DNA of 10,123 nt from an uncultured archaeon (GTDB taxonomy: Archaea > Asgardarchaeota > Heimdallarchaeia > Heimdallarchaeales > Kariarchaeaceae). The DNA is taken from NCBI GenBank assembly GCA_964645535.1, contig CAZYCQ010000085.1, forward strand, positions 1 to 10,123, given 5' to 3'. Of the stretch, positions 230 through 9,881 are shown piece by piece. The notes under the pieces are model-generated. The model ran no database searches and was not told the DNA's origin. It saw only the letters and a program-made list of their open reading frames with translations. Made by a program: the position numbers and the translations under genes. Position 1 is the stretch's first letter. Each line of letters begins with the position of its first letter.

Positions 230-1579
230 GTGGTATTGCGTTCCTTAGGAAAATCCCTCCATGGTGCAATAAGCAAAGTATTGAGACGCGGTCCAATTGA
301 TGCAGAGCTTATTCGTGAACTAAAAAATGAGATATTTAAAGCACTCTTGGAAGCAGACGTAGAAATAACAATTGCAAGTGAAGTTGTCAATAAAGTTGAA
401 CAACGTTCTTTAACTGAAAAACTTCCGCCTGGCTTAGAAAGGAACAAGGCTGTCATCAACATTGTTTATGAAGAATTGACAAAAATAATGGGTGACCAAG
501 CCTACCCATTGAATCTTTCAAAAGATAGAACAAACATTTTGATGGTTGTAGGAATACAGGGTTCTGGGAAAACAACCACAATAGGAAAGCTTGCCAATTA
601 CTTGAAAAAGCAAAAATGGAACGTTGGACTTGTTTGCACTGACACTTGGAGGCCTGGAGCCTATGAGCAACTTTTGCAGTTAGGGGAACGTGCAGGAGTG
701 GACGTTTTTGGTGATCCAAAACAGAAAAATGCAATTAAATTAGCAACTCAGGGTGTAAAAGAATTCCGAAAACAGGGGAAAAACGTAATTATCATAGATA
801 CAGCTGGTCGCCATAAAGAGGAAGCAGATCTCATTAAAGAAATGAAAAAGCTTGACAAGAAACTTAAACCTGATGAAATTATTTTGGTGATTGATGGAAC
901 TTTAGGTCAAAAAGCTAAATCTCAAGCCATAGCATTCAAAGAAGCCACTCCAATAGGTAGTATAATTGTAACCAAACTTGACGGGACTGCAAAAGGTGGT
1001 GGTGCAATTTCTGCATCTGCTAGTACAGGTGCCCCTATCAAGTTTATTGGTGTGGGCGAAAATATTGATGATTTCGAACCATTTGACCCGAAAAAATTTG
1101 TTGGAAGGATTTTGGGATTAGGTGATTTAGAAACCTTATTGGAAGAAGTTAAAAGAGCAGAACTTCAACTTGATGAGGATCGAACCAAAGAAATCATGAA
1201 AGGCCATCTTACTTACCGCGATATTATCACAATGTTTGAATCCATGAATAAGATGGGTGGGTTCAAAAAGATATTGGATCTTCTTCCGGGTGGAATGGGT
1301 CATCAATTGGACGACAATATGTTGAACATGAGTAAAGAATCAATGAAAAAATACAAGACCATCATCTCTTCAATGACGGACAAAGAAAAAGATGCCAAGG
1401 TAAAACTTAATCGTTCAAGGGTTGAACGCATTGCTCGTGGAAGTGGAACCTCTATCGAAGACGTCAAAGAATTAATCAACCAAAAGAAAAATGCAGAGAA
1501 AATGGTTAAGCAGATGACAAAACCGCGTAGAGGGAAAAAAGGTATGGCTGGACTCCCATTTAATTTTCCCTTTCCATAA
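230..1579 (+). CDS. srp54: Signal recognition particle 54 kDa protein (SRP54/Ffh)
   Basis: N domain ALLEADV; GTPase motifs GIQGSGKTTT, DTWRPGA, DTAGR, TKLDGTAKGGG; Met-rich M domain with IISSMT and RVERIARGSGT. GTG start gives an archaeal-type MVLRSLG N-terminus. Confidence 0.98.
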   Translation: MVLRSLGKSLHGAISKVLRRGPIDAELIRELKNEIFKALLEADVEITIASEVVNKVEQRSLTEKLPPGLERNKAVINIVYEELTKIMGDQAYPLNLSKDRTNILMVVGIQGSGKTTTIGKLANYLKKQKWNVGLVCTDTWRPGAYEQLLQLGERAGVDVFGDPKQKNAIKLATQGVKEFRKQGKNVIIIDTAGRHKEEADLIKEMKKLDKKLKPDEIILVIDGTLGQKAKSQAIAFKEATPIGSIIVTKLDGTAKGGGAISASASTGAPIKFIGVGENIDDFEPFDPKKFVGRILGLGDLETLLEEVKRAELQLDEDRTKEIMKGHLTYRDIITMFESMNKMGGFKKILDLLPGGMGHQLDDNMLNMSKESMKKYKTIISSMTDKEKDAKVKLNRSRVERIARGSGTSIEDVKELINQKKNAEKMVKQMTKPRRGKKGMAGLPFNFPFP

Positions 1580-1626
1580 CATTTGATACTTAAATAATAA
1601 ATAGATTAAACAATAGGTTATTTTCA

Positions 1627-2151
1627 ATGGACTATACTTCTTTTATGATTTTACTTCTTCCCATGCCTCCTCCCAAAAAACGGGATTTGTCATTTCCAGA
1701 TCCAAAATCGCGTTATCCTTGGAATAAGGCGTTCGAACTTATTGGAAATTTCTTTTGTTTGAGCAATAGCTTTAACTATAGCCATTCTTCCCTAGTTGTA
1801 TATCCTTTTGAAGACCAAACTTCGCTCATTCTTTTTGTTGGGGAAAAGCTAAGATATCTTTCTCCTTCCATTCGATCAGTGGGGTCTCTCTTCGCAAAAG
1901 CACACCTAAAATTAGCAAATTCTTCTCTACATGAATGGTCGTTGTCTACTCCCGGAATATTTTACTCTAAACATCACCATACAGAGCTACCATTGAATTT
2001 TATTTTCCATTTTGATCAGTTTTTATTGGAAAGAAGGCTTTCTTTTCCTTCCGAATTGAACAACATCCCCCAAAATGTAATTCTCTTTGATCTAACCCAA
2101 CAAAACATACTCTCTCCATATTTTGAACTTCTCAAACGAATTTATGTATAA
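1627..2151 (+). CDS. Divergent, C-terminally shortened TrmY-like protein (tRNA pseudouridine54 N1-methyltransferase, SPOUT/COG1901 family); possibly inactive or decaying
   Basis: Three ordered blocks match TrmY as recalled: FFCLSN (aa 42-47, cf. FFLSH), ILFVGEKLRYLSPSIRS (aa 68-84, cf. IKFVGSELKKVSPDERN), WSLSTPGIF (aa 104-112, cf. WNQSTPGIY). The GRLD and GDHxG motifs and the final knot/helix segment are not recognisable. Proximity to srp54 and pus10 fits. Confidence 0.7.
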   Translation: MDYTSFMILLLPMPPPKKRDLSFPDPKSRYPWNKAFELIGNFFCLSNSFNYSHSSLVVYPFEDQTSLILFVGEKLRYLSPSIRSVGSLFAKAHLKLANSSLHEWSLSTPGIFYSKHHHTELPLNFIFHFDQFLLERRLSFPSELNNIPQNVILFDLTQQNILSPYFELLKRIYV

Positions 2152-2155
2152 TCTA

Positions 2156-4252
2156 CTAAAAACCTTGATACCTACTCAAAATTTCATCCGTTTTTTTGTG
2201 AGGATCCAGCCAACCGAATGAATTCACCTGAATTACAATTTCATCATTATCCTCTACTGATTTTCCTTTTACCCAAAGAGGTTTCAACAAAATTTTTTCT
2301 TTTATTTGCTCAACAACAGCTTCATCTTCTCCAACTCTTTCATTGATATCAAAGGCTTCCTGTGCTGAAAGACCAAAAAGCTTTTCTGCTTGATCAGAAA
2401 AGAATTTTGCCTTCATTGTCAGCGTACTGGCATCATCAAGGGTAACAGTAACAATCATTCTCTTTACCGAATTTTCAACAACTCCATGTTCTTTGCATAC
2501 AAGGTCTCCTGTATCATTTTGTGTGACTTTTCTTGGACAAAAGGGACATGAATCATAAAAACCGATTTTTGGGAATATCTTTACTATTTTTGCTTCTACA
2601 TAGACATTCATGCCTGCTTGAATTTTATCTAACTCTAAAGTTTCATAGATATTTTGCTTCAATTTATCTGCAGTTTGAAGAAGGGTATTTGTATCATCGA
2701 AATCGTCAATTTTTCGTATTTTTGAATTTCTTCCCAAGGTGATTGAAACTCCATAATCGTCTCTTCTCCCTCTTCCTAATTGTACTTCAATTGTATCTTC
2801 TGCCTTAAGATTCTTGATGAGTTCTCTATCATCATCCCATGCCGCAAGGCGTCCTGTTTCTCCATTTTCATCAATAACCTCTACATTGATGACATGGGCT
2901 TCAGTATTATCCACTTTCCTGATTGTTGTTCGTTCAACTGGATCTGAAATTAGCTTTAGTCGAATAAAAATCCCTGTCATTCTGTCCTGTATATCTTCAA
3001 AAGTGATATGGGGTATAGATATTTCTTTCTCATCTATATCTGGAGGATTCTTTATTAGTTCACTATATTTCCCAAAGTTCAATTCCACTCTTTGAGAATA
3101 ATCACTGTAACGGGTATATGCGTTATTGATTTTAATTACATCATCAACCTGTAAACCTTCTAATTTTTCAATGTCATCATTCCAGAAATTAATGTTGATT
3201 ATTCCCGTTGCATCACCCAATGTAATGGATCTAAGCTTCCCTTCACCCTTTTCAGACATAAATTTGACTTCATTGTTGATAGAAACTATTTTTCCAAGAA
3301 CCGAGACATTTTTGGTTTCTTCTGTTATTTCCCCAATGCTTAAAAGTGGAACTTCAAATGACCCTTTTTCATACTTGAGATTTTCTAGTTCCTCAGAAAC
3401 GAAAGGAGTTATGGATGAATATGATCGAAAAGTAAGTTCTGGGTATCCATTATTATTGATGAATGCCTTTAACCCTGTCAATTTGACTGTTTGTCCTTCG
3501 TCAAATGCTAATGCCCTGCTAGTATCGTCATCCCAAAAGGTAACACGTATCTTTCCACTGGTATCCATTATAGTTAAACTTGTTACCTTTCCAATTGTTC
3601 CATCATTTCTTTCAAATTCAGTTACCCCCCTTCGTTCAACAATCTTTCCAACAATTATAACGTTTTCCATTTCTTGGTTTATGTCTCTGATAGGTATTAA
3701 TTTTCCTTCATCAACTTGAGGGAAGTCTTTGTCATTTACACCTATAATATTAACATCTATTGTTGCACGAGAACCAATATTTAACTCAATATTCCCATTA
3801 AGACCCATTCTTGGCTCTGCATTGGCTATTCTGATGATGCGTCCTGGGTGGAGATCCAAATCGTCAACCAACTTTGTTTTTTCATTCCACAATGTTGCAT
3901 AAATCGACCCAGAATCATCAATGAGTTCTAATCTTCGCAATTGCCCCGGTGTGTTGTCCTTTCGCATGAAATGCTTTGTATTGTAGACCTTGCTTATTCT
4001 TGCGTAAAGAGAAATGGGTCCCATGCCTTCAATAATGTCACTTATCTTTACCATGCTGCTTGATTTAACTGAATTATCTGTTAATGGGACATCTAGGTTA
4101 TTTGCAAGTAAATAGGCTGCTCCTTGTTCATTAACAAAATTATTTAGGCTTTCTCTTGTTTTAGCCACCATATCCTTTACTTCTTCATAGGACTTCCCTG
4201 TATGTTCCATTATCCGCTTAATTACTTCTTCTGCGCTTAATTGTTTACTCAT
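2156..4252 (-). CDS. rpa1: Replication protein A large subunit (Rpa1/RPA70-like): N-terminal helical domain, 5 OB folds, zinc finger
   Basis: Repeated OB signature (LIDDSGSIYATLWNE, IMDTSGKIRVTFWDD, LGDATGIININFWND, VIDENGETGRLAAWDD, VTLDDAS). CPFC-x13-CKEH lies within the last OB. N-terminal GAAYLLANNLDV helical domain. ATG at 4252 is preferred over TTG at 4288 because a TATA-like box at 4304-4311 would put the transcription start downstream of 4288. Confidence 0.93.
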   Translation of the reverse strand: MSKQLSAEEVIKRIMEHTGKSYEEVKDMVAKTRESLNNFVNEQGAAYLLANNLDVPLTDNSVKSSSMVKISDIIEGMGPISLYARISKVYNTKHFMRKDNTPGQLRRLELIDDSGSIYATLWNEKTKLVDDLDLHPGRIIRIANAEPRMGLNGNIELNIGSRATIDVNIIGVNDKDFPQVDEGKLIPIRDINQEMENVIIVGKIVERRGVTEFERNDGTIGKVTSLTIMDTSGKIRVTFWDDDTSRALAFDEGQTVKLTGLKAFINNNGYPELTFRSYSSITPFVSEELENLKYEKGSFEVPLLSIGEITEETKNVSVLGKIVSINNEVKFMSEKGEGKLRSITLGDATGIININFWNDDIEKLEGLQVDDVIKINNAYTRYSDYSQRVELNFGKYSELIKNPPDIDEKEISIPHITFEDIQDRMTGIFIRLKLISDPVERTTIRKVDNTEAHVINVEVIDENGETGRLAAWDDDRELIKNLKAEDTIEVQLGRGRRDDYGVSITLGRNSKIRKIDDFDDTNTLLQTADKLKQNIYETLELDKIQAGMNVYVEAKIVKIFPKIGFYDSCPFCPRKVTQNDTGDLVCKEHGVVENSVKRMIVTVTLDDASTLTMKAKFFSDQAEKLFGLSAQEAFDINERVGEDEAVVEQIKEKILLKPLWVKGKSVEDNDEIVIQVNSFGWLDPHKKTDEILSRYQGF

Positions 4253-4303
4253 TCTTTTCACTGCCTCGGAAAAGTTTCCGGTATTCAAATCTTGCTATTA
4301 TGT

Positions 4304-4320
4304 TACTTAAACTTTCTTTG
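4304..4320 (-). promoter_or_regulatory. Putative BRE/TATA promoter of rpa1
   Basis: Minus strand reads CAAAGAAAG-TTTAAGTA: purine-rich BRE followed by an archaeal TATA-like box, about 50 nt upstream of the ATG at 4252. Confidence 0.6.
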
Positions 4321-4344
4321 GAGGGTAAATTAAAAGTAAATTCT

Positions 4345-6042
4345 TTATTCTCCTTCTACTAGTTTTTTCCGTAGAATTTTTCCAATCATTGATTTTGGTA
4401 ATTCATCACGGAATGTCACTTTCTTTGGAACTTTGTAGGGTGCCAAATTCTCTTTACAATATGCGATTACCTCTTCTTCAGTCATGACTTCTCCTTCTTT
4501 GAGAACCACCCATGCTGCAACAATTTCTCCTTTAACAGGGTCGTTTATTCCAGCAACAGCTGCCTCCAAAATTTTAGGATGTTCATAAAGAACTTCTTCT
4601 ACCTCTCTAGGAATAACATTATATCCTGAGACAATAATGAGGTCTTTTTTCCTATCTACAATGTATGCATATCCTTCTTCATCCATTTTTGCAATATCCC
4701 CTGTATGTAACCACCCATCAATGAGGGTCTTTTTGGTTTCTTCAGGTTTGTTCCAATATTCTTTCATCACTTGTGGTCCTTTAATACACAATTCGCCAAT
4801 TTCTCCAATTTCAACAATTGTTTTACCATCCTCAGAATCTACTATTTTAACATCCGTATCAGGCACAGGTAATCCGATTGAACCAACCTTAGGTTTGATC
4901 TTTGTGCTTCCAACAGGATTTGCATGGGTGACTGGACTGGCCTCAGAAAGACCATATCCTTCAACTAAATCCCCTCCTGTAACTTCTTTGAATTCCTTGG
5001 CGACCTTAAGTGGTAAGGGTGCTCCTCCAGAGATTACTGCAATCAATGATGACATGTCCGTTGTTTCTGCTTTGGGATGATTTAATATTGCAACAATCAT
5101 TGTTGGAACCGCAGGGAAAAATGTAATTCGATGTTTTTCAATTAGGCTCAAAACCTCTCCTGCATTAAACCTCGCGACTAACACCATTGGTACTCCTAAT
5201 TGCAGGGAAAGCCCTAATCCTACTGTAAAACCGAAGCTATGAAAGAGCGGTAATGCAACCAAAATACTTCCTCGTTTTTCTGGAACTGTGTTGATGACTT
5301 CTCTTGTTTGTTGGGCATTATAACTAATATTTCGATGGGTAAGGGCAGCCCCTTTGGAAAGTCCTGTGGTTCCTCCTGTGTATTGAAGCACTGCTATGTC
5401 ATCTAGATCCACTTCTTCCTCGATAAATCCTTCTGGATTCAACTGCATGACTTCCTTAAAAGAATAATTATTTGGGATGGGCTTTAATTTTGGATCATCG
5501 AGCTTCTTGAGAAGTTTTCCTAAAAATGCAGTTAACGGTTTCAGAAAATCTGAAATATTTCCACAAATTATTATTTCAAGGTCGGTTTCTTTTGCAACTT
5601 CATTTACTTTATCTTGAAACAGAGTAATGGTAATAATTGCTTTTGCTCCCGAATCTTTCATTTGATGTTTTAATTCTCGGTGGGTATAGAGAGGATTGGT
5701 CTGCACAACAATTCCTCCCAATGATGCAACGGCAAAATGGGCAATAATATAATGTGGTGTATTTGGAAGCATAAGAGCGACTCTGTCCCCTTTTTTGATC
5801 CCTAATTTTCTTAATCCTCCTTGAAACTGTCTCACTGCATTCAAAATTTCACTGTATGTCAACGTTTTTCCCTTTGGAAAAATCACCATTGGGTCATTTG
5901 GTTCATTTGTTGCCCTATGTTCCAAAAACTTGAATGGAATGAGTTCCTTGTACTCTAGGCTGGTCTTTCTAACTCCTTCCAATGTTTTTAACCATGGTTT
6001 TGGTATTTCCTCACTTGTCATTCTAACATTTATTATCCTCAT
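4345..6042 (-). CDS. fadD: Long-chain fatty acid--CoA ligase (FadD/LcfA-like ANL adenylate-forming enzyme)
   Basis: AMP-binding motif YTGGTTGLSKG, LPLFHSFG, EGYGLSE, GWLHTGD, DRKKDLIIVSGYNV, and PKSMIGKILRK with the catalytic Lys. Start may be the second ATG at 6021 (MTSEE). Confidence 0.93.
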   Translation of the reverse strand: MRIINVRMTSEEIPKPWLKTLEGVRKTSLEYKELIPFKFLEHRATNEPNDPMVIFPKGKTLTYSEILNAVRQFQGGLRKLGIKKGDRVALMLPNTPHYIIAHFAVASLGGIVVQTNPLYTHRELKHQMKDSGAKAIITITLFQDKVNEVAKETDLEIIICGNISDFLKPLTAFLGKLLKKLDDPKLKPIPNNYSFKEVMQLNPEGFIEEEVDLDDIAVLQYTGGTTGLSKGAALTHRNISYNAQQTREVINTVPEKRGSILVALPLFHSFGFTVGLGLSLQLGVPMVLVARFNAGEVLSLIEKHRITFFPAVPTMIVAILNHPKAETTDMSSLIAVISGGAPLPLKVAKEFKEVTGGDLVEGYGLSEASPVTHANPVGSTKIKPKVGSIGLPVPDTDVKIVDSEDGKTIVEIGEIGELCIKGPQVMKEYWNKPEETKKTLIDGWLHTGDIAKMDEEGYAYIVDRKKDLIIVSGYNVIPREVEEVLYEHPKILEAAVAGINDPVKGEIVAAWVVLKEGEVMTEEEVIAYCKENLAPYKVPKKVTFRDELPKSMIGKILRKKLVEGE

Positions 6043-6193: not shown

Positions 6194-7423
6194 TTGGTGA
6201 AACAAAGAGAAGTTGATATTTCTAAGTTAGAAGAAATTTCTCAATCTATCTATATATGTCCACGATGTATTGGCAGAACTTTAGGGCGTTTTAAATCAGA
6301 TTTGCCAAACATAACTTTACATCAATTTGAAACTCTTCCAGATTCAATAAAGCAGATGACCGTAGACAAAGACCAATGTGATTTATGCCACGGAATTGTC
6401 GATAAGGTCTTACGGGGCGTTCGTTCAATTATTGATGATATTCAGTCCATTGAATTTAATTCATTCCTTGTTGGTACCAGCTTCAAAACAGACCTCTTTA
6501 CCAATGCAGATAAATTGCTTTCAAAATATGGTTTTTCTCCTTTAACCTTGAAGCATGAAATTAATCGCGAAGTGGGATTGATGATTTCTCAGCTAACAAA
6601 CAAAGATGTAGACTTTAATTCTCCAGACCTGAATATCATTATTGAAATTAAGGGACTTGAGAAAATACGATTCAGAACAAAACCTAAATCTTTGTACTTT
6701 TATGGGAGATATAAAAAGCTTATTCGTGGCATTCCACAAACAAAATGGCCTTGCTCAATTTGTAAAGGAAGAAAATGCGAAAAATGTGAATACACAGGTT
6801 TTCAATACAGGACAAGTGTTGAACAAATAATTGCCGCTCCTTTCCAAAAATCTTTTGTGGCTAAATCAAGTAGCTTTCATGGTGCAGGAAGGGAAGATAT
6901 TGATGCACTTATGCTTGGGACTGGTAGACCTTTTATTTTAGAATTGAAAGAACCAATGAGACGGACTGCTAATCTTTCTGAAATCATTGAAAAAATCAAT
7001 TCCTCCAAAACAGTCGAAGTTTTTGATCTTAGAGAATCAAGCAAAGCTGAAATCAAGGAAATAAAAAGCAAATCTGAATTCACAAAGAAAAAATATAGGG
7101 CATTAGTCGAATTTGAAGGAACCCTGCCAAAAAATCTTATTTCTCTTTTTCCGAATTTCCCAATAATAATTAATCAACGAACTCCCAACCGGGTTTCACA
7201 TCGAAGAGCAGACCTCATTCGTAAAAAGAAAATTTACAATGTTGAAATTTTTCCACTAACCAATGATCATTTTGAAGTCTTTATTGAAGCTCAAGGTGGT
7301 GCTTACATAAAAGAATTTATTTCTGGAGATGATGGTAGGACACAACCTAATATCTCCTCAATTCTAGGGATTAAAGCAAAATGCAAAGAACTTGATGTTC
7401 TTTCTGTGGGTGAAAAAGAATAA
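6194..7423 (+). CDS. pus10: tRNA pseudouridine(54/55) synthase Pus10
   Basis: N-terminal CPRC...CDLC, THUMP-like region, GRYKKLIRGIPQTKW, catalytic GAGREDIDALMLG, QRTPNRVSHRR, GGAYIKEFISGDDGRT. TTG (6194) or GTG (6197) start. Confidence 0.97.
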   Translation: MVKQREVDISKLEEISQSIYICPRCIGRTLGRFKSDLPNITLHQFETLPDSIKQMTVDKDQCDLCHGIVDKVLRGVRSIIDDIQSIEFNSFLVGTSFKTDLFTNADKLLSKYGFSPLTLKHEINREVGLMISQLTNKDVDFNSPDLNIIIEIKGLEKIRFRTKPKSLYFYGRYKKLIRGIPQTKWPCSICKGRKCEKCEYTGFQYRTSVEQIIAAPFQKSFVAKSSSFHGAGREDIDALMLGTGRPFILELKEPMRRTANLSEIIEKINSSKTVEVFDLRESSKAEIKEIKSKSEFTKKKYRALVEFEGTLPKNLISLFPNFPIIINQRTPNRVSHRRADLIRKKKIYNVEIFPLTNDHFEVFIEAQGGAYIKEFISGDDGRTQPNISSILGIKAKCKELDVLSVGEKE

Positions 7424-7527
7424 TTGCAGATGCTACAGTTCAAAACTTATCTTATACTAGGTTTTTGAAACTGTTGACCCAATAACCAAAAGAAATTAAA
7501 GGGTCACTAGGGCAGACATATAAGTAA

Positions 7528-9162
7528 ATGACGAAAAACTCGTTGAAAGCCTCAATAAAGATTTTACTCCATGCTGGTTTCACAGTACATCCGAGCTTGC
7601 TGAGATATCTTAAAAAACACCCCCATCCCGAGCATTTAATACAACAGTTTCTTAAGTCTACTCATCTAACTCCCTCTACTCATCCAATTTTAACTGATCA
7701 GGATCTCATAAATCAAATGGCAAATACTTCTAATTCGGACACCAAACCCCAAAAAATGCCTTTGATTCCATCTGAAAGCAAAAAACCTTCCTCCCCCTCA
7801 CAACAATCCTCATCTTCAAGAAAATCATTTAGATCCATTGCTTCCTCATCTTTTCGTGTTTCAACTCAATCTGTACTTACAACTCTCGATTCAGATCTTG
7901 AAGGGCTTAGTAATTTTGAACCAATCTTGGAAGTGACATGGCAACCTAGTTTCAGTACAAATCATTTGGGAACGATAGAAGATTTTGTTCAATATTTCAA
8001 CAGTAGATATCAAAAATTGAAAAGAATCTTTAGCAACCGTACTGATCTTGGGAATCTTCTTCCAATCAAACAATTAGAGCATATTACTTCTGGAACCGTT
8101 TCTATAATTGGGATGGTTTCTTCAAAACAGTTTTCATCCAATGGCGGAGGAATCATGATATTGGAAGATCCCTCCATGGAAAATCCAGTGTCATGCATTC
8201 TCCCAAAATCACGACCTGAACTTGTTGAACAGGCACTACGGATTATGGATGATTCAGTAATCTGTGTAAAAGGATTTCTACTTGATACTCTCAAAATTTC
8301 TGTCGATGAAATCATTCTACCAGAAATACCTCGCATTAGGAAACTAAATCGGGCTGAAGTTCCTGTTCATGCGGCTTTCTTGTCGGACATTCATGTCGGA
8401 TCAAAAGGTTTCATAAAGAAAGCTTTTGACAATTTTATTAAATTTCTGAACGGTGAATTCGGGAATTCAAAGATGAGAAAAATCGGTTTACAAACAAAAT
8501 TTGTATTATTTGCTGGAGATGTCGTTGATGGTGTTGGAGTTTACCCAAATCACGAAAATGAACTTTCCATTGATGACATCAGAGAGCAATATAATGAATT
8601 CGCAAGATTTCTTGAACGTATTCCTGAAGATGTTCAGATCGTTGTGATTCCTGGCAATCATGATCAGGTTCGCCCAGCAGAACCCCAACCCATTATTTCC
8701 CCTTCTTACGCTCCTGAACTCCATGGAATGAAAAACGTAACAATGCTCCCCAATCCTTCACAGGTGAAAATTGCAGGTATTGAAACTCTACTTTATCATT
8801 GCACCAGTCTTCCTGACATACTAAACCATATTCCTGGTCTAAAAATCGAAAAGCCTGTTGAAGTAATGAAAAAAATGCTTCAGGCTCGTCATCTTGCCCC
8901 TGTCTGGGATTCTCGAACACCAATTGCTCCAGAACCCGAAGATTCACTTGTTATTGAGAAGGTTCCTGATCTTTTCCATGGTGGGCATGTCCATATAAAT
9001 GATCTTGGATCCTACAATGGAGTGACAATTCTAAACAGCGGAACCATGCAATCGCAAACAAGCTACCAAAAAGCTTTGAACATTCAACCTACTCCCGGTG
9101 AAGTAATTGTGATTAATCTAAAAACCTTCCAACCTAACTTGATCCGCCTGCTTTCAGATTAA
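7528..9162 (+). CDS. polB: DNA polymerase D small subunit DP1 (3'-5' proofreading exonuclease, calcineurin-like phosphoesterase)
   Basis: YFNSRYQKLKRI, OB region IIGMV...LEDP, phosphoesterase motifs SDIHVGS, GDVVDGVGVYP, PGNHD, YH, GHVH, then NSGTMQSQT and PTPG. N-terminal helical domain followed by a low-complexity linker. Confidence 0.97.
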   Translation: MTKNSLKASIKILLHAGFTVHPSLLRYLKKHPHPEHLIQQFLKSTHLTPSTHPILTDQDLINQMANTSNSDTKPQKMPLIPSESKKPSSPSQQSSSSRKSFRSIASSSFRVSTQSVLTTLDSDLEGLSNFEPILEVTWQPSFSTNHLGTIEDFVQYFNSRYQKLKRIFSNRTDLGNLLPIKQLEHITSGTVSIIGMVSSKQFSSNGGGIMILEDPSMENPVSCILPKSRPELVEQALRIMDDSVICVKGFLLDTLKISVDEIILPEIPRIRKLNRAEVPVHAAFLSDIHVGSKGFIKKAFDNFIKFLNGEFGNSKMRKIGLQTKFVLFAGDVVDGVGVYPNHENELSIDDIREQYNEFARFLERIPEDVQIVVIPGNHDQVRPAEPQPIISPSYAPELHGMKNVTMLPNPSQVKIAGIETLLYHCTSLPDILNHIPGLKIEKPVEVMKKMLQARHLAPVWDSRTPIAPEPEDSLVIEKVPDLFHGGHVHINDLGSYNGVTILNSGTMQSQTSYQKALNIQPTPGEVIVINLKTFQPNLIRLLSD

Positions 9163-9881
9163 ATTTTAATGTTTTCTCCACTCCAAATCAATCTTCCTGC
9201 CTTATCTGTTTGTATTAATCCTAATTCTCTCAATTCTGCGACAAATTTCTTTACTTGCATGATTGAAGAACCCAATGTAAATGCAAGCTGAATCTCTGTT
9301 AACCCTCCGTGTTTTTTTAGTGTTCCTATTATTTTATATCGAGGGTCTGTCAATGCAAGTTTTTCTAATAAATCAAGTTGTGATTTCCATGAATCAATAA
9401 TTCCATTAAGTTGTTCAATTTTTGTTATGAGCTGTAATTTCTCATTTTGGAGCATTTCCATTTTTTCATTGAGTGCCGCAATCTCGCGGTCTTTTTCCAA
9501 AACTTCTTCCTTCTTTGTTTTCAATAGCTCAGAAAGGACTTGGACTTCATCATCTAAATCTTTTCCTCGTTTTCTCTTTTTGCTTTTAAGAGGGATATCC
9601 TTGCTTGTTTCTTGAGACAAAGTATTTTGACTAAATGAGCTTAGTTGGCTTTTCATTTCTAAAAGTAGGCTTGTCAAGTTTTCTACCTTGCGATCCAAAG
9701 AATGTACACTTACTGCTTCATTTGAAAGCCTTTCAACTTCTTGCAACAAACGTTCTCTTTCCGCCGATTGTTTTTCCAGCAATCTTTTGTAATCTGAGAG
9801 TATCTGATAAACTCGATCAATTTCAGATTGTGGGGTGGCTCCATATTTCTTATCCCAAGATATGTCTTCTTGTTGATCCAA
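9159..9881 (-). CDS. Hypothetical protein: two coiled-coil segments, central basic patch, C-terminal winged helix-turn-helix
   Basis: 240-aa ORF with TTG start preceded by AAGGGGT. Heptad-rich E/K/L segments, KSKKRKRGK, and a C-terminal DPRYKIIGTLKKHGGLTEIQLAFTLGSSIMQVKKFVAELRELGLIQ fitting a wHTH pattern. Confidence 0.85.
   Translation of the reverse strand: MDQQEDISWDKKYGATPQSEIDRVYQILSDYKRLLEKQSAERERLLQEVERLSNEAVSVHSLDRKVENLTSLLLEMKSQLSSFSQNTLSQETSKDIPLKSKKRKRGKDLDDEVQVLSELLKTKKEEVLEKDREIAALNEKMEMLQNEKLQLITKIEQLNGIIDSWKSQLDLLEKLALTDPRYKIIGTLKKHGGLTEIQLAFTLGSSIMQVKKFVAELRELGLIQTDKAGRLIWSGENIKI

Follow-up and report, generated by a model that had tools for sequence, protein, structure and literature searches.

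Background

SPOUT methyltransferases are obligate homodimers with a deep trefoil knot. TrmY is the member of this superfamily that acts as a homodimeric tRNA (pseudouridine54-N1)-methyltransferase, and its substrate psi54 is made by Pus10. We take TrmY to correspond to COG1901, DUF358, PF04013 and NF002560, with Mj1640 (PDB 3AI9/3AIA), AF_1056 (2QMM) and HVO_1989 as representatives. SPOUT enzymes, TrmY included, are dimers in which both subunits contribute to the pocket and to the RNA surface (PMC5372735, PMC9508554, PMC1829167, PMC2241868). This also applies to Nep1/Emg1 (COG1756), a SPOUT N1-pseudouridine methyltransferase of 18S/16S rRNA that works as a dimer with the RNA bound across the interface. 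SAM is held in Emg1/Nep1 by backbone atoms of conserved Gly-containing loops, and residue R88 of yeast Emg1, the GRPD equivalent, adjoins the SAM site and is required for RNA binding (PMC2241868). Yeast Emg1 furthermore has a methylation-independent role.

An inactive SPOUT subunit was stated as not reported by Tkaczuk et al. in 2007, who only speculated on Ymr310c (PMC1829167), and heterodimers are not mentioned in a SPOUT review from 2022 (PMC9508554). The literature that we searched contained neither an example of a SPOUT enzyme accompanied by an inactive paralog nor a paper dealing with TrmY together with Asgard archaea.

The gene considered here, P0001, is located in an archaeal DNA stretch of 10,123 nucleotides, referred to as the window. 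Judged by the relatives of the SRP54 encoded there, this DNA belongs to a Heimdallarchaeota (Asgard) MAG. In an earlier note on this DNA it was described as a hidden TrmY homolog without the SAM-binding SPOUT knot. TrmY-model scans of related genomes detected two genes per genome, which we designate A and B. P0001 was compared with both types and with canonical TrmY proteins.

Results

The following features were located in the window:

230..1579, plus strand: srp54, found upstream of B-type genes as a conserved neighbour throughout Asgard archaea
1580..1626, plus strand: AT-rich spacer of 47 bp between srp54 and B; a TATA-like run, ttaaataataaata, precedes the start codon of B by about 25-35 nt and makes this a possible promoter of B
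1627..2151, plus strand: P0001, SPOUT-derived B-type TrmY paralog of 174 aa plus stop; predicted to be non-catalytic
2156..4288, minus strand: RPA, convergent with B and part of a genus-specific block (2156..6042)
4345..6042, minus strand: acyl-CoA ligase (fadD), part of the same genus-specific block, which parts B from pus10
6194..7423, plus strand: pus10 (TIGR01213, 419 bits, cutoff 200), the ancestral downstream neighbour of B, whose product makes psi54/55
9159..9881, minus strand: protein of 240 aa without family assignment; it combines a long coiled-coil with a winged-helix at the C-terminus and has weak matches to MarR, HTH_24 and HVO_A0114
further neighbour in the window: PolD small subunit

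Judging from the spacer at 1580-1626, B may be transcribed from a promoter of its own, with little or no leader. At the other end, the stop codons of B (2149-2151) and RPA (2156-2158) are only 4 nt apart and leave no room for separate terminators.

The frame of P0001 is open throughout its 174 amino acids with zero internal stops. Curated family models hardly capture the protein. A Pfam scan returned zero matches, with none to PF04013 at E<=1, and the NCBIfam TrmY model NF002560 matched residues 55-120 only (E 1.6e-5, 24.5 bits, cutoff 183), which leaves P0001 below both curated TrmY thresholds (the NF002560 equivalog and PF04013). Since PF04013 fails to detect it, the term hidden is fair. An exhaustive search with P0001 yielded 38 relatives at the 50%-cluster level, the nearest of them only about 40% identical, and 15 out of 36 relatives reached PF04013. 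The profile built from these relatives matched Mj1640 (3AIA) with an E value of 3.1e-19, covering only chain residues 37-163 and ending just before the knot.

Structure prediction led to the same family. Two AlphaFold2 models of P0001, derived from alignments of 38 and 53 sequences, had a mean pLDDT of 81.6 and 85.8, with about 94 for residues 1-120. The top five Foldseek matches were all DUF358/TrmY proteins with a probability of 1.00, including 3AI9, 3AIA, 2QMM and 2QWV. VIA-align comparisons of the models to TrmY crystal structures gave Z scores of 13.7, 13.3, 13.0 and 12.6, followed by about 6 for Nep1; 151 residues were aligned at Z 13.7 and up to 154 overall, with an rmsd of about 3.1. 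We regard it as practically certain that P0001 is a TrmY homolog, as had been proposed. It shares with TrmY the blocks FFLSH, G..L...PDERS and STPGI, the N-terminal and central fold and the linkage of its gene to pus10, whose product makes the TrmY substrate. Nep1/Emg1 is the next-best structural relative, but belongs to another family and has Nep1-specific insertions.

The conserved and lost parts of the protein are distributed as follows (all on the plus strand):

1627..1986: residues 1-120, the N-terminal and central portion, confidently predicted (pLDDT about 94) as TrmY-like, with all conserved columns
1711..1725: RYPWN, residues 29-33, at the position of canonical GRxD (Nep1 GRPD); Arg replaced by P31, Asp by N33
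1750..1767: FFCLSN block, residues 42-47, canonical FFLSH; kept by B-type, gone from A-type proteins
1834..1875: FVGEKLRYLSPSIR block, residues 70-83, canonical G..L....PDER; PDER replaced by PSIR (80-83)
1936..1962: WSLSTPGIF block, residues 104-112, canonical W.QSTPGIYV; kept by B-type, gone from A-type proteins
1987..2148: residues 121-174, what is left of the knot region, namely only a helix (123-135), a strand (150-155) and a helix (163-173); pLDDT 60-86, without SAM-loop motifs

The three ordered blocks reported earlier for the stop-free frame were thus found again. They sit on invariant or near-invariant columns (F43, S46, G72, R76, Y77, L78, P80, S84, P109 and G110), and F43, S46, G72, R76, P80, S84 and G110 are invariant throughout the order to which the window belongs. 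A C-terminal tail of the form Y[FY].LL[KR][RE]IY is common to P0001 and its congeners.

The L-INS-i alignment of 77 TrmY family members placed canonical GRLD opposite Y30-P31-W32-N33 of P0001 and PDER opposite PSIR, in agreement with the replacements noted before. The strict GR.D pattern was present in most A-type proteins, all single-copy proteins and the euryarchaeal TrmYs, and in 0 out of 39 B-type proteins. GRxD of A-type and canonical TrmY proteins corresponds in alignment to the GRPD motif of Methanocaldococcus jannaschii Nep1; residues equivalent to RPD are missing from P0001. A regular-expression motif table over the same 77 sequences revealed that the GDHxG and SLGP..L.[SA]H loops, which form the SAM-binding part of canonical TrmY, are both absent from P0001. 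After the STPGI strand canonical TrmY continues as helix-strand-strand-helix-strand-helix, whereas both P0001 models contain only helix-strand-helix after residue 120, with a pLDDT of 60-69 over most of this region. P0001 is about 30 residues shorter than TrmY in this part. Of roughly six canonical secondary-structure elements that follow the STPGI strand, two have been deleted in the window's order and more in its family, and the C-terminal half contains neither a conserved glycine nor any invariant column. These losses bear out the claim that the SPOUT knot motifs for SAM binding have disappeared.

Erosion of the knot region can be followed through the B clade. The layout is kept and the SAM loops are replaced in other Asgard classes, the helix between the two knot strands is deleted in the window's order, and the region is further shortened in the window's family (f1), which has the most reduced version of B seen. 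Because knot-region elements are missing from P0001, we infer from the models that its trefoil knot is lost. With GRxD, the SAM loops and the knot helix all missing, P0001 would, judging from its sequence, be unable to bind SAM or to catalyse methylation by itself, and it is likely to be non-catalytic.

The motif split across the 77 sequences was clean. B-type proteins are without GRxD and SAM loops and keep FFLSH, P..RS and STPGI, whereas A-type proteins show the reverse, keeping GRxD and the knot and lacking the blocks kept by B. All motifs were found together only in the single-copy proteins of families f5 and f6 and in euryarchaeal TrmYs. With eight TrmYs from Methanoperedens/Methanosarcinales as outgroup, the tree gave SH-aLRT values of 98 for the Asgard clade, 96 for the A side, 99 for the B clade and 95 for the B clade of the order. 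P0001 falls in the B clade, keeps FFLSH, P..RS and STPGI and is linked to srp54 and pus10. It is thus very probably a member of an ancient conserved clade, separate from TrmY proper and co-existing with a knot-bearing paralog across Asgard archaea. The view of P0001 as a lineage-specific oddity did not hold, as it is one member of an ancient Asgard-wide paralog family beside SRP54 and Pus10. Entries of this type are labelled 'hypothetical protein' in NCBI, e.g. in Ca. Jordarchaeales.

A single TrmY with all motifs in an srp54-pus10 neighbourhood was observed in families f5 (L054, L055, L056 and L064) and f6 (L057); in f5 it sits directly between the two genes. These single copies fall on the A side in the free tree, but a placement with B is not rejected by an AU test (p 0.44). 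They may be un-degenerated B orthologs, as their gene neighbourhood suggests, or else relatives of A, as the free tree has them.

The window's genome was found to encode, on another contig, an A-type paralog of 176 aa at G000:C25:1422-1952(-) (locus L053:1422-1952). Scans of this genome with the NF002560 and PF04013 models for a second trmY found none. The negative outcome was false, as the gene came up (E 6.8e-15) in a protein search in which the A protein of a congener served as the query. The search for a second trmY that had been suggested earlier was therefore positive, and it is a knot-bearing gene with the motifs GHKRID, FLGAKLD and SLG..LLASQ that accompanies P0001 and pus10. A specific profile also found A in the congener G002 and in 3 out of 3 genomes of family f4. 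The A gene of the window's genome shares 11 nt with the end of the ORF upstream of it, which codes for a wHTH-like protein of 234 aa (L053:1942-2646, minus strand) and is itself preceded by a wHTH ORF of 99 aa.

A proteins of the relatives match the TrmY model over its full length and pass the Pfam cutoff, whereas B proteins match only from about model position 30. Alignment of the A profile covered the entire chain, knot included, of both AF_1056 (E 6e-27) and Mj1640. A comparison of the B profile with the A profile by hhalign gave no match (probability 0.13%), which we read as complementary divergence and not as an argument against homology, because both profiles match TrmY structures. Catalytic activity of the A-type proteins is an assumption, as their SAM loop is itself altered in the window's order, reading LGAQ.D or LGAK.D and not GDH.G. 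In family f7 a third, more canonical TrmY (129-137 bits) was observed besides A and B in L058 (G074:C37) and L063 (G068:C90), and it may have been acquired horizontally.

Of the 41 genomes in the order, 36 contain both A and B, and the completeness of the other five is 63-85%. Among 52 other Asgard genomes, about 40 had two TrmY-like genes, 10 had none and 2 had one. Four genomes from families f10, f13 and f15, which are 93-100% complete, contained neither A nor B when searched with sensitive profiles. Because these genomes keep Pus10 (374-505 bits), the distribution of B follows that of A and not that of Pus10. Family f19 has A and B as convergent neighbours. B without a detectable A was found in G111 (91% complete) and in G096. 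No fused A-B protein was found, which is weak evidence. P0001 is a paralog without cofactor-binding and catalytic residues that co-occurs with a catalytic-type paralog, as in a pseudoenzyme pair.

The B-type gene adjoins srp54 in all 18 of the 18 sampled Asgard loci and in 13 of those also pus10, and full-length TrmY genes sit away from srp54. In the window srp54 lies immediately upstream and pus10 4 kb downstream, beyond the genus-specific insertion. A shortening of B by the RPA/fadD insertion was considered and rejected, because B proteins of family f1 relatives with an uninterrupted srp54-B-pus10 order are equally short, the family ranging from 165 to 173 aa. The neighbourhood is under rearrangement within the genus. 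In the closest public relative (L040, WAKA01000192.1; SRP54 88% identical), srp54 is followed by an ORF at 7461-7715, a homolog of the wHTH/coiled-coil gene at 9159-9881 in the window, and there is no B before the contig end.

Open frames of B orthologs were present in 38 out of 41 genomes of the order and also in other Asgard classes. Since the relatives of P0001 are only about 40% identical and synonymous sites are saturated at this distance, dN/dS was determined for close pairs drawn from elsewhere in the B clade. Six such pairs had omega values of 0.09-0.18, in line with the continued selection that had been suspected. By region, omega was 0.06-0.17 in the N-terminal 60%; the C-terminal 40% had values of 0.20-0.29, a relaxed yet still clear constraint. 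In the window's genus (g1, G000-G003) the evolution of A and B alike is unusually rapid: between species B is 31-42% and A 35-41% identical, compared to 72-88% for SRP54 and 61-65% for RPA.

Discussion

The best explanation for these data would start with an early duplication of TrmY in Asgard archaea, from which the B branch arose while staying in the srp54-X-pus10 cluster. B would have kept the central TrmY blocks (FFLSH-like, LRYL.P..RS and STPGI) and lost GRxD, which adjoins the active site, together with the Gly-containing SAM loops. The helix between the two knot strands would then have been deleted in the order, and the same region shortened again in the window's family. Unable to bind SAM or to methylate by itself, B would pair with the A paralog, whose gene lies at another place in that genome. 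A would provide the SAM knot and GRxD, and B would provide the RNA-contacting blocks that A has lost; by analogy to Nep1, the blocks retained by B likely have RNA-facing roles. The A/B heterodimer would possess one complete active site for N1-methylation of Pus10-made psi54, and an enzyme of two identical subunits would have become a pair of worker and helper.

The homology, the motif losses, the clade, the synteny, the co-occurrence and the purifying selection on which this explanation builds are shown by the data above. Physical pairing of A and B and their division of labour are hypothesised, because the motifs are complementary, the two genes occur both or neither, the single-copy proteins are complete and the genes are adjacent in f19. 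Judging from sequence and distribution, we consider the chances to be about even that B is the non-catalytic subunit of an A/B heterodimeric m1-psi54 methyltransferase. More tentative, and somewhat short of even, is the extended proposal that homodimeric TrmY was replaced in Asgard archaea by an obligate heterodimer, in which two half-degenerate paralogs complement each other and which would be the first SPOUT enzyme with a pseudoenzyme subunit, and that the dead subunit in this Heimdall family then deleted its knot-forming elements, passing from a knotted to an unknotted fold while still functional.

B might instead act without A, because G111 and G096 show only B. It would then be a stand-alone non-catalytic RNA-binding protein, for instance a homodimer with a binding or chaperone function for the tRNA T-arm or psi54/55, or else an accessory of the Pus10 step. 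The tight srp54-B-pus10 linkage across the phylum and the retention of the blocks likely facing RNA are consistent with such a role, and a SAM-binding mutant of yeast Emg1 that still supports growth indicates that non-catalytic roles of SPOUT proteins are possible (PMC2241868). However, B tracks A and not Pus10, as the four nearly complete or complete genomes with Pus10 and neither paralog demonstrate. Two independent proteins would hardly account for the loss from A of exactly the blocks kept by B, and where there is a single copy, all motifs are held in one protein. We therefore consider a stand-alone function rather unlikely. Far less probable is that P0001 is still an active methyltransferase binding SAM through a remodelled pocket, although the overall TrmY fold is kept (Z 13.7), the ORF is intact in a family under selection, and motifs are imperfect predictors in SPOUT proteins, which bind SAM mostly via backbone atoms (PMC2241868). 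Such a pocket would have to be built from a C-terminal half without a conserved glycine or an invariant column, from which two of roughly six elements have been deleted in the order and more in the family. Moreover, the Arg and Asp of GRxD are replaced, the alignment of the B profile to Mj1640 does not extend into the knot, and pLDDT is 60-69 over most of the region.

The earlier note had left the choice between a decaying gene and a non-catalytic protein. The second part stands, as P0001 is likely non-catalytic and under selection. The first, a decaying trmY in a lineage losing m1-psi54, is, like a chance ORF, already largely refuted and in our view hardly credible. Such a reading would fit the very weak curated match (24.5 bits against a cutoff of 183) without any Pfam match, the very fast divergence within the genus and the shortened C-terminus of P0001. 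On the other hand, 38 of the order's 41 genomes have stop-free orthologs, as do other Asgard classes, the invariant columns are kept, and omega is 0.09-0.18 in all six close pairs. The short length (165-173 aa) is uniform across the family and the C-terminal tail is common to congeners. Finally, the A paralog and Pus10 (419 bits) are intact in the same genome.

What the P0001 locus newly contributes is the most reduced form of B and the proof of an A partner that standard models miss. Both A and B of this genome escape curated TrmY models, and surveys would therefore wrongly score the lineage as being without the m1-psi54 pathway. As these archaea are close relatives of eukaryotes, such mis-scoring bears on the history of tRNA position-54 modification toward eukaryotes. 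In addition, the B lineage, which lost its knot elements step by step, provides a rare natural series on the unknotting of a knotted protein.

Comparison with known methyltransferase pairs

To our knowledge, the design of an enzyme plus a dead paralog has so far been found only in Rossmann-fold methyltransferases, e.g. Trm6/Trm61 and METTL3/METTL14. In Trm61/Trm6, METTL3/METTL14, DNMT3A/DNMT3L and the TbPRMT1 enzyme/prozyme, a duplicate of the catalytic subunit has become a cofactor-blind partner that aids substrate binding or activity, which is the same logic as proposed here for A and B (PMC10908127, PMC5007650, bioRxiv 10.1101/776112). These pairs differ from ours in that all have the Rossmann fold, whereas the A/B pairing of SPOUT proteins is a proposal. 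If it is true, the cofactor-blind partner adds the design to the SPOUT superfamily and shows how it can originate by complementary degeneration.
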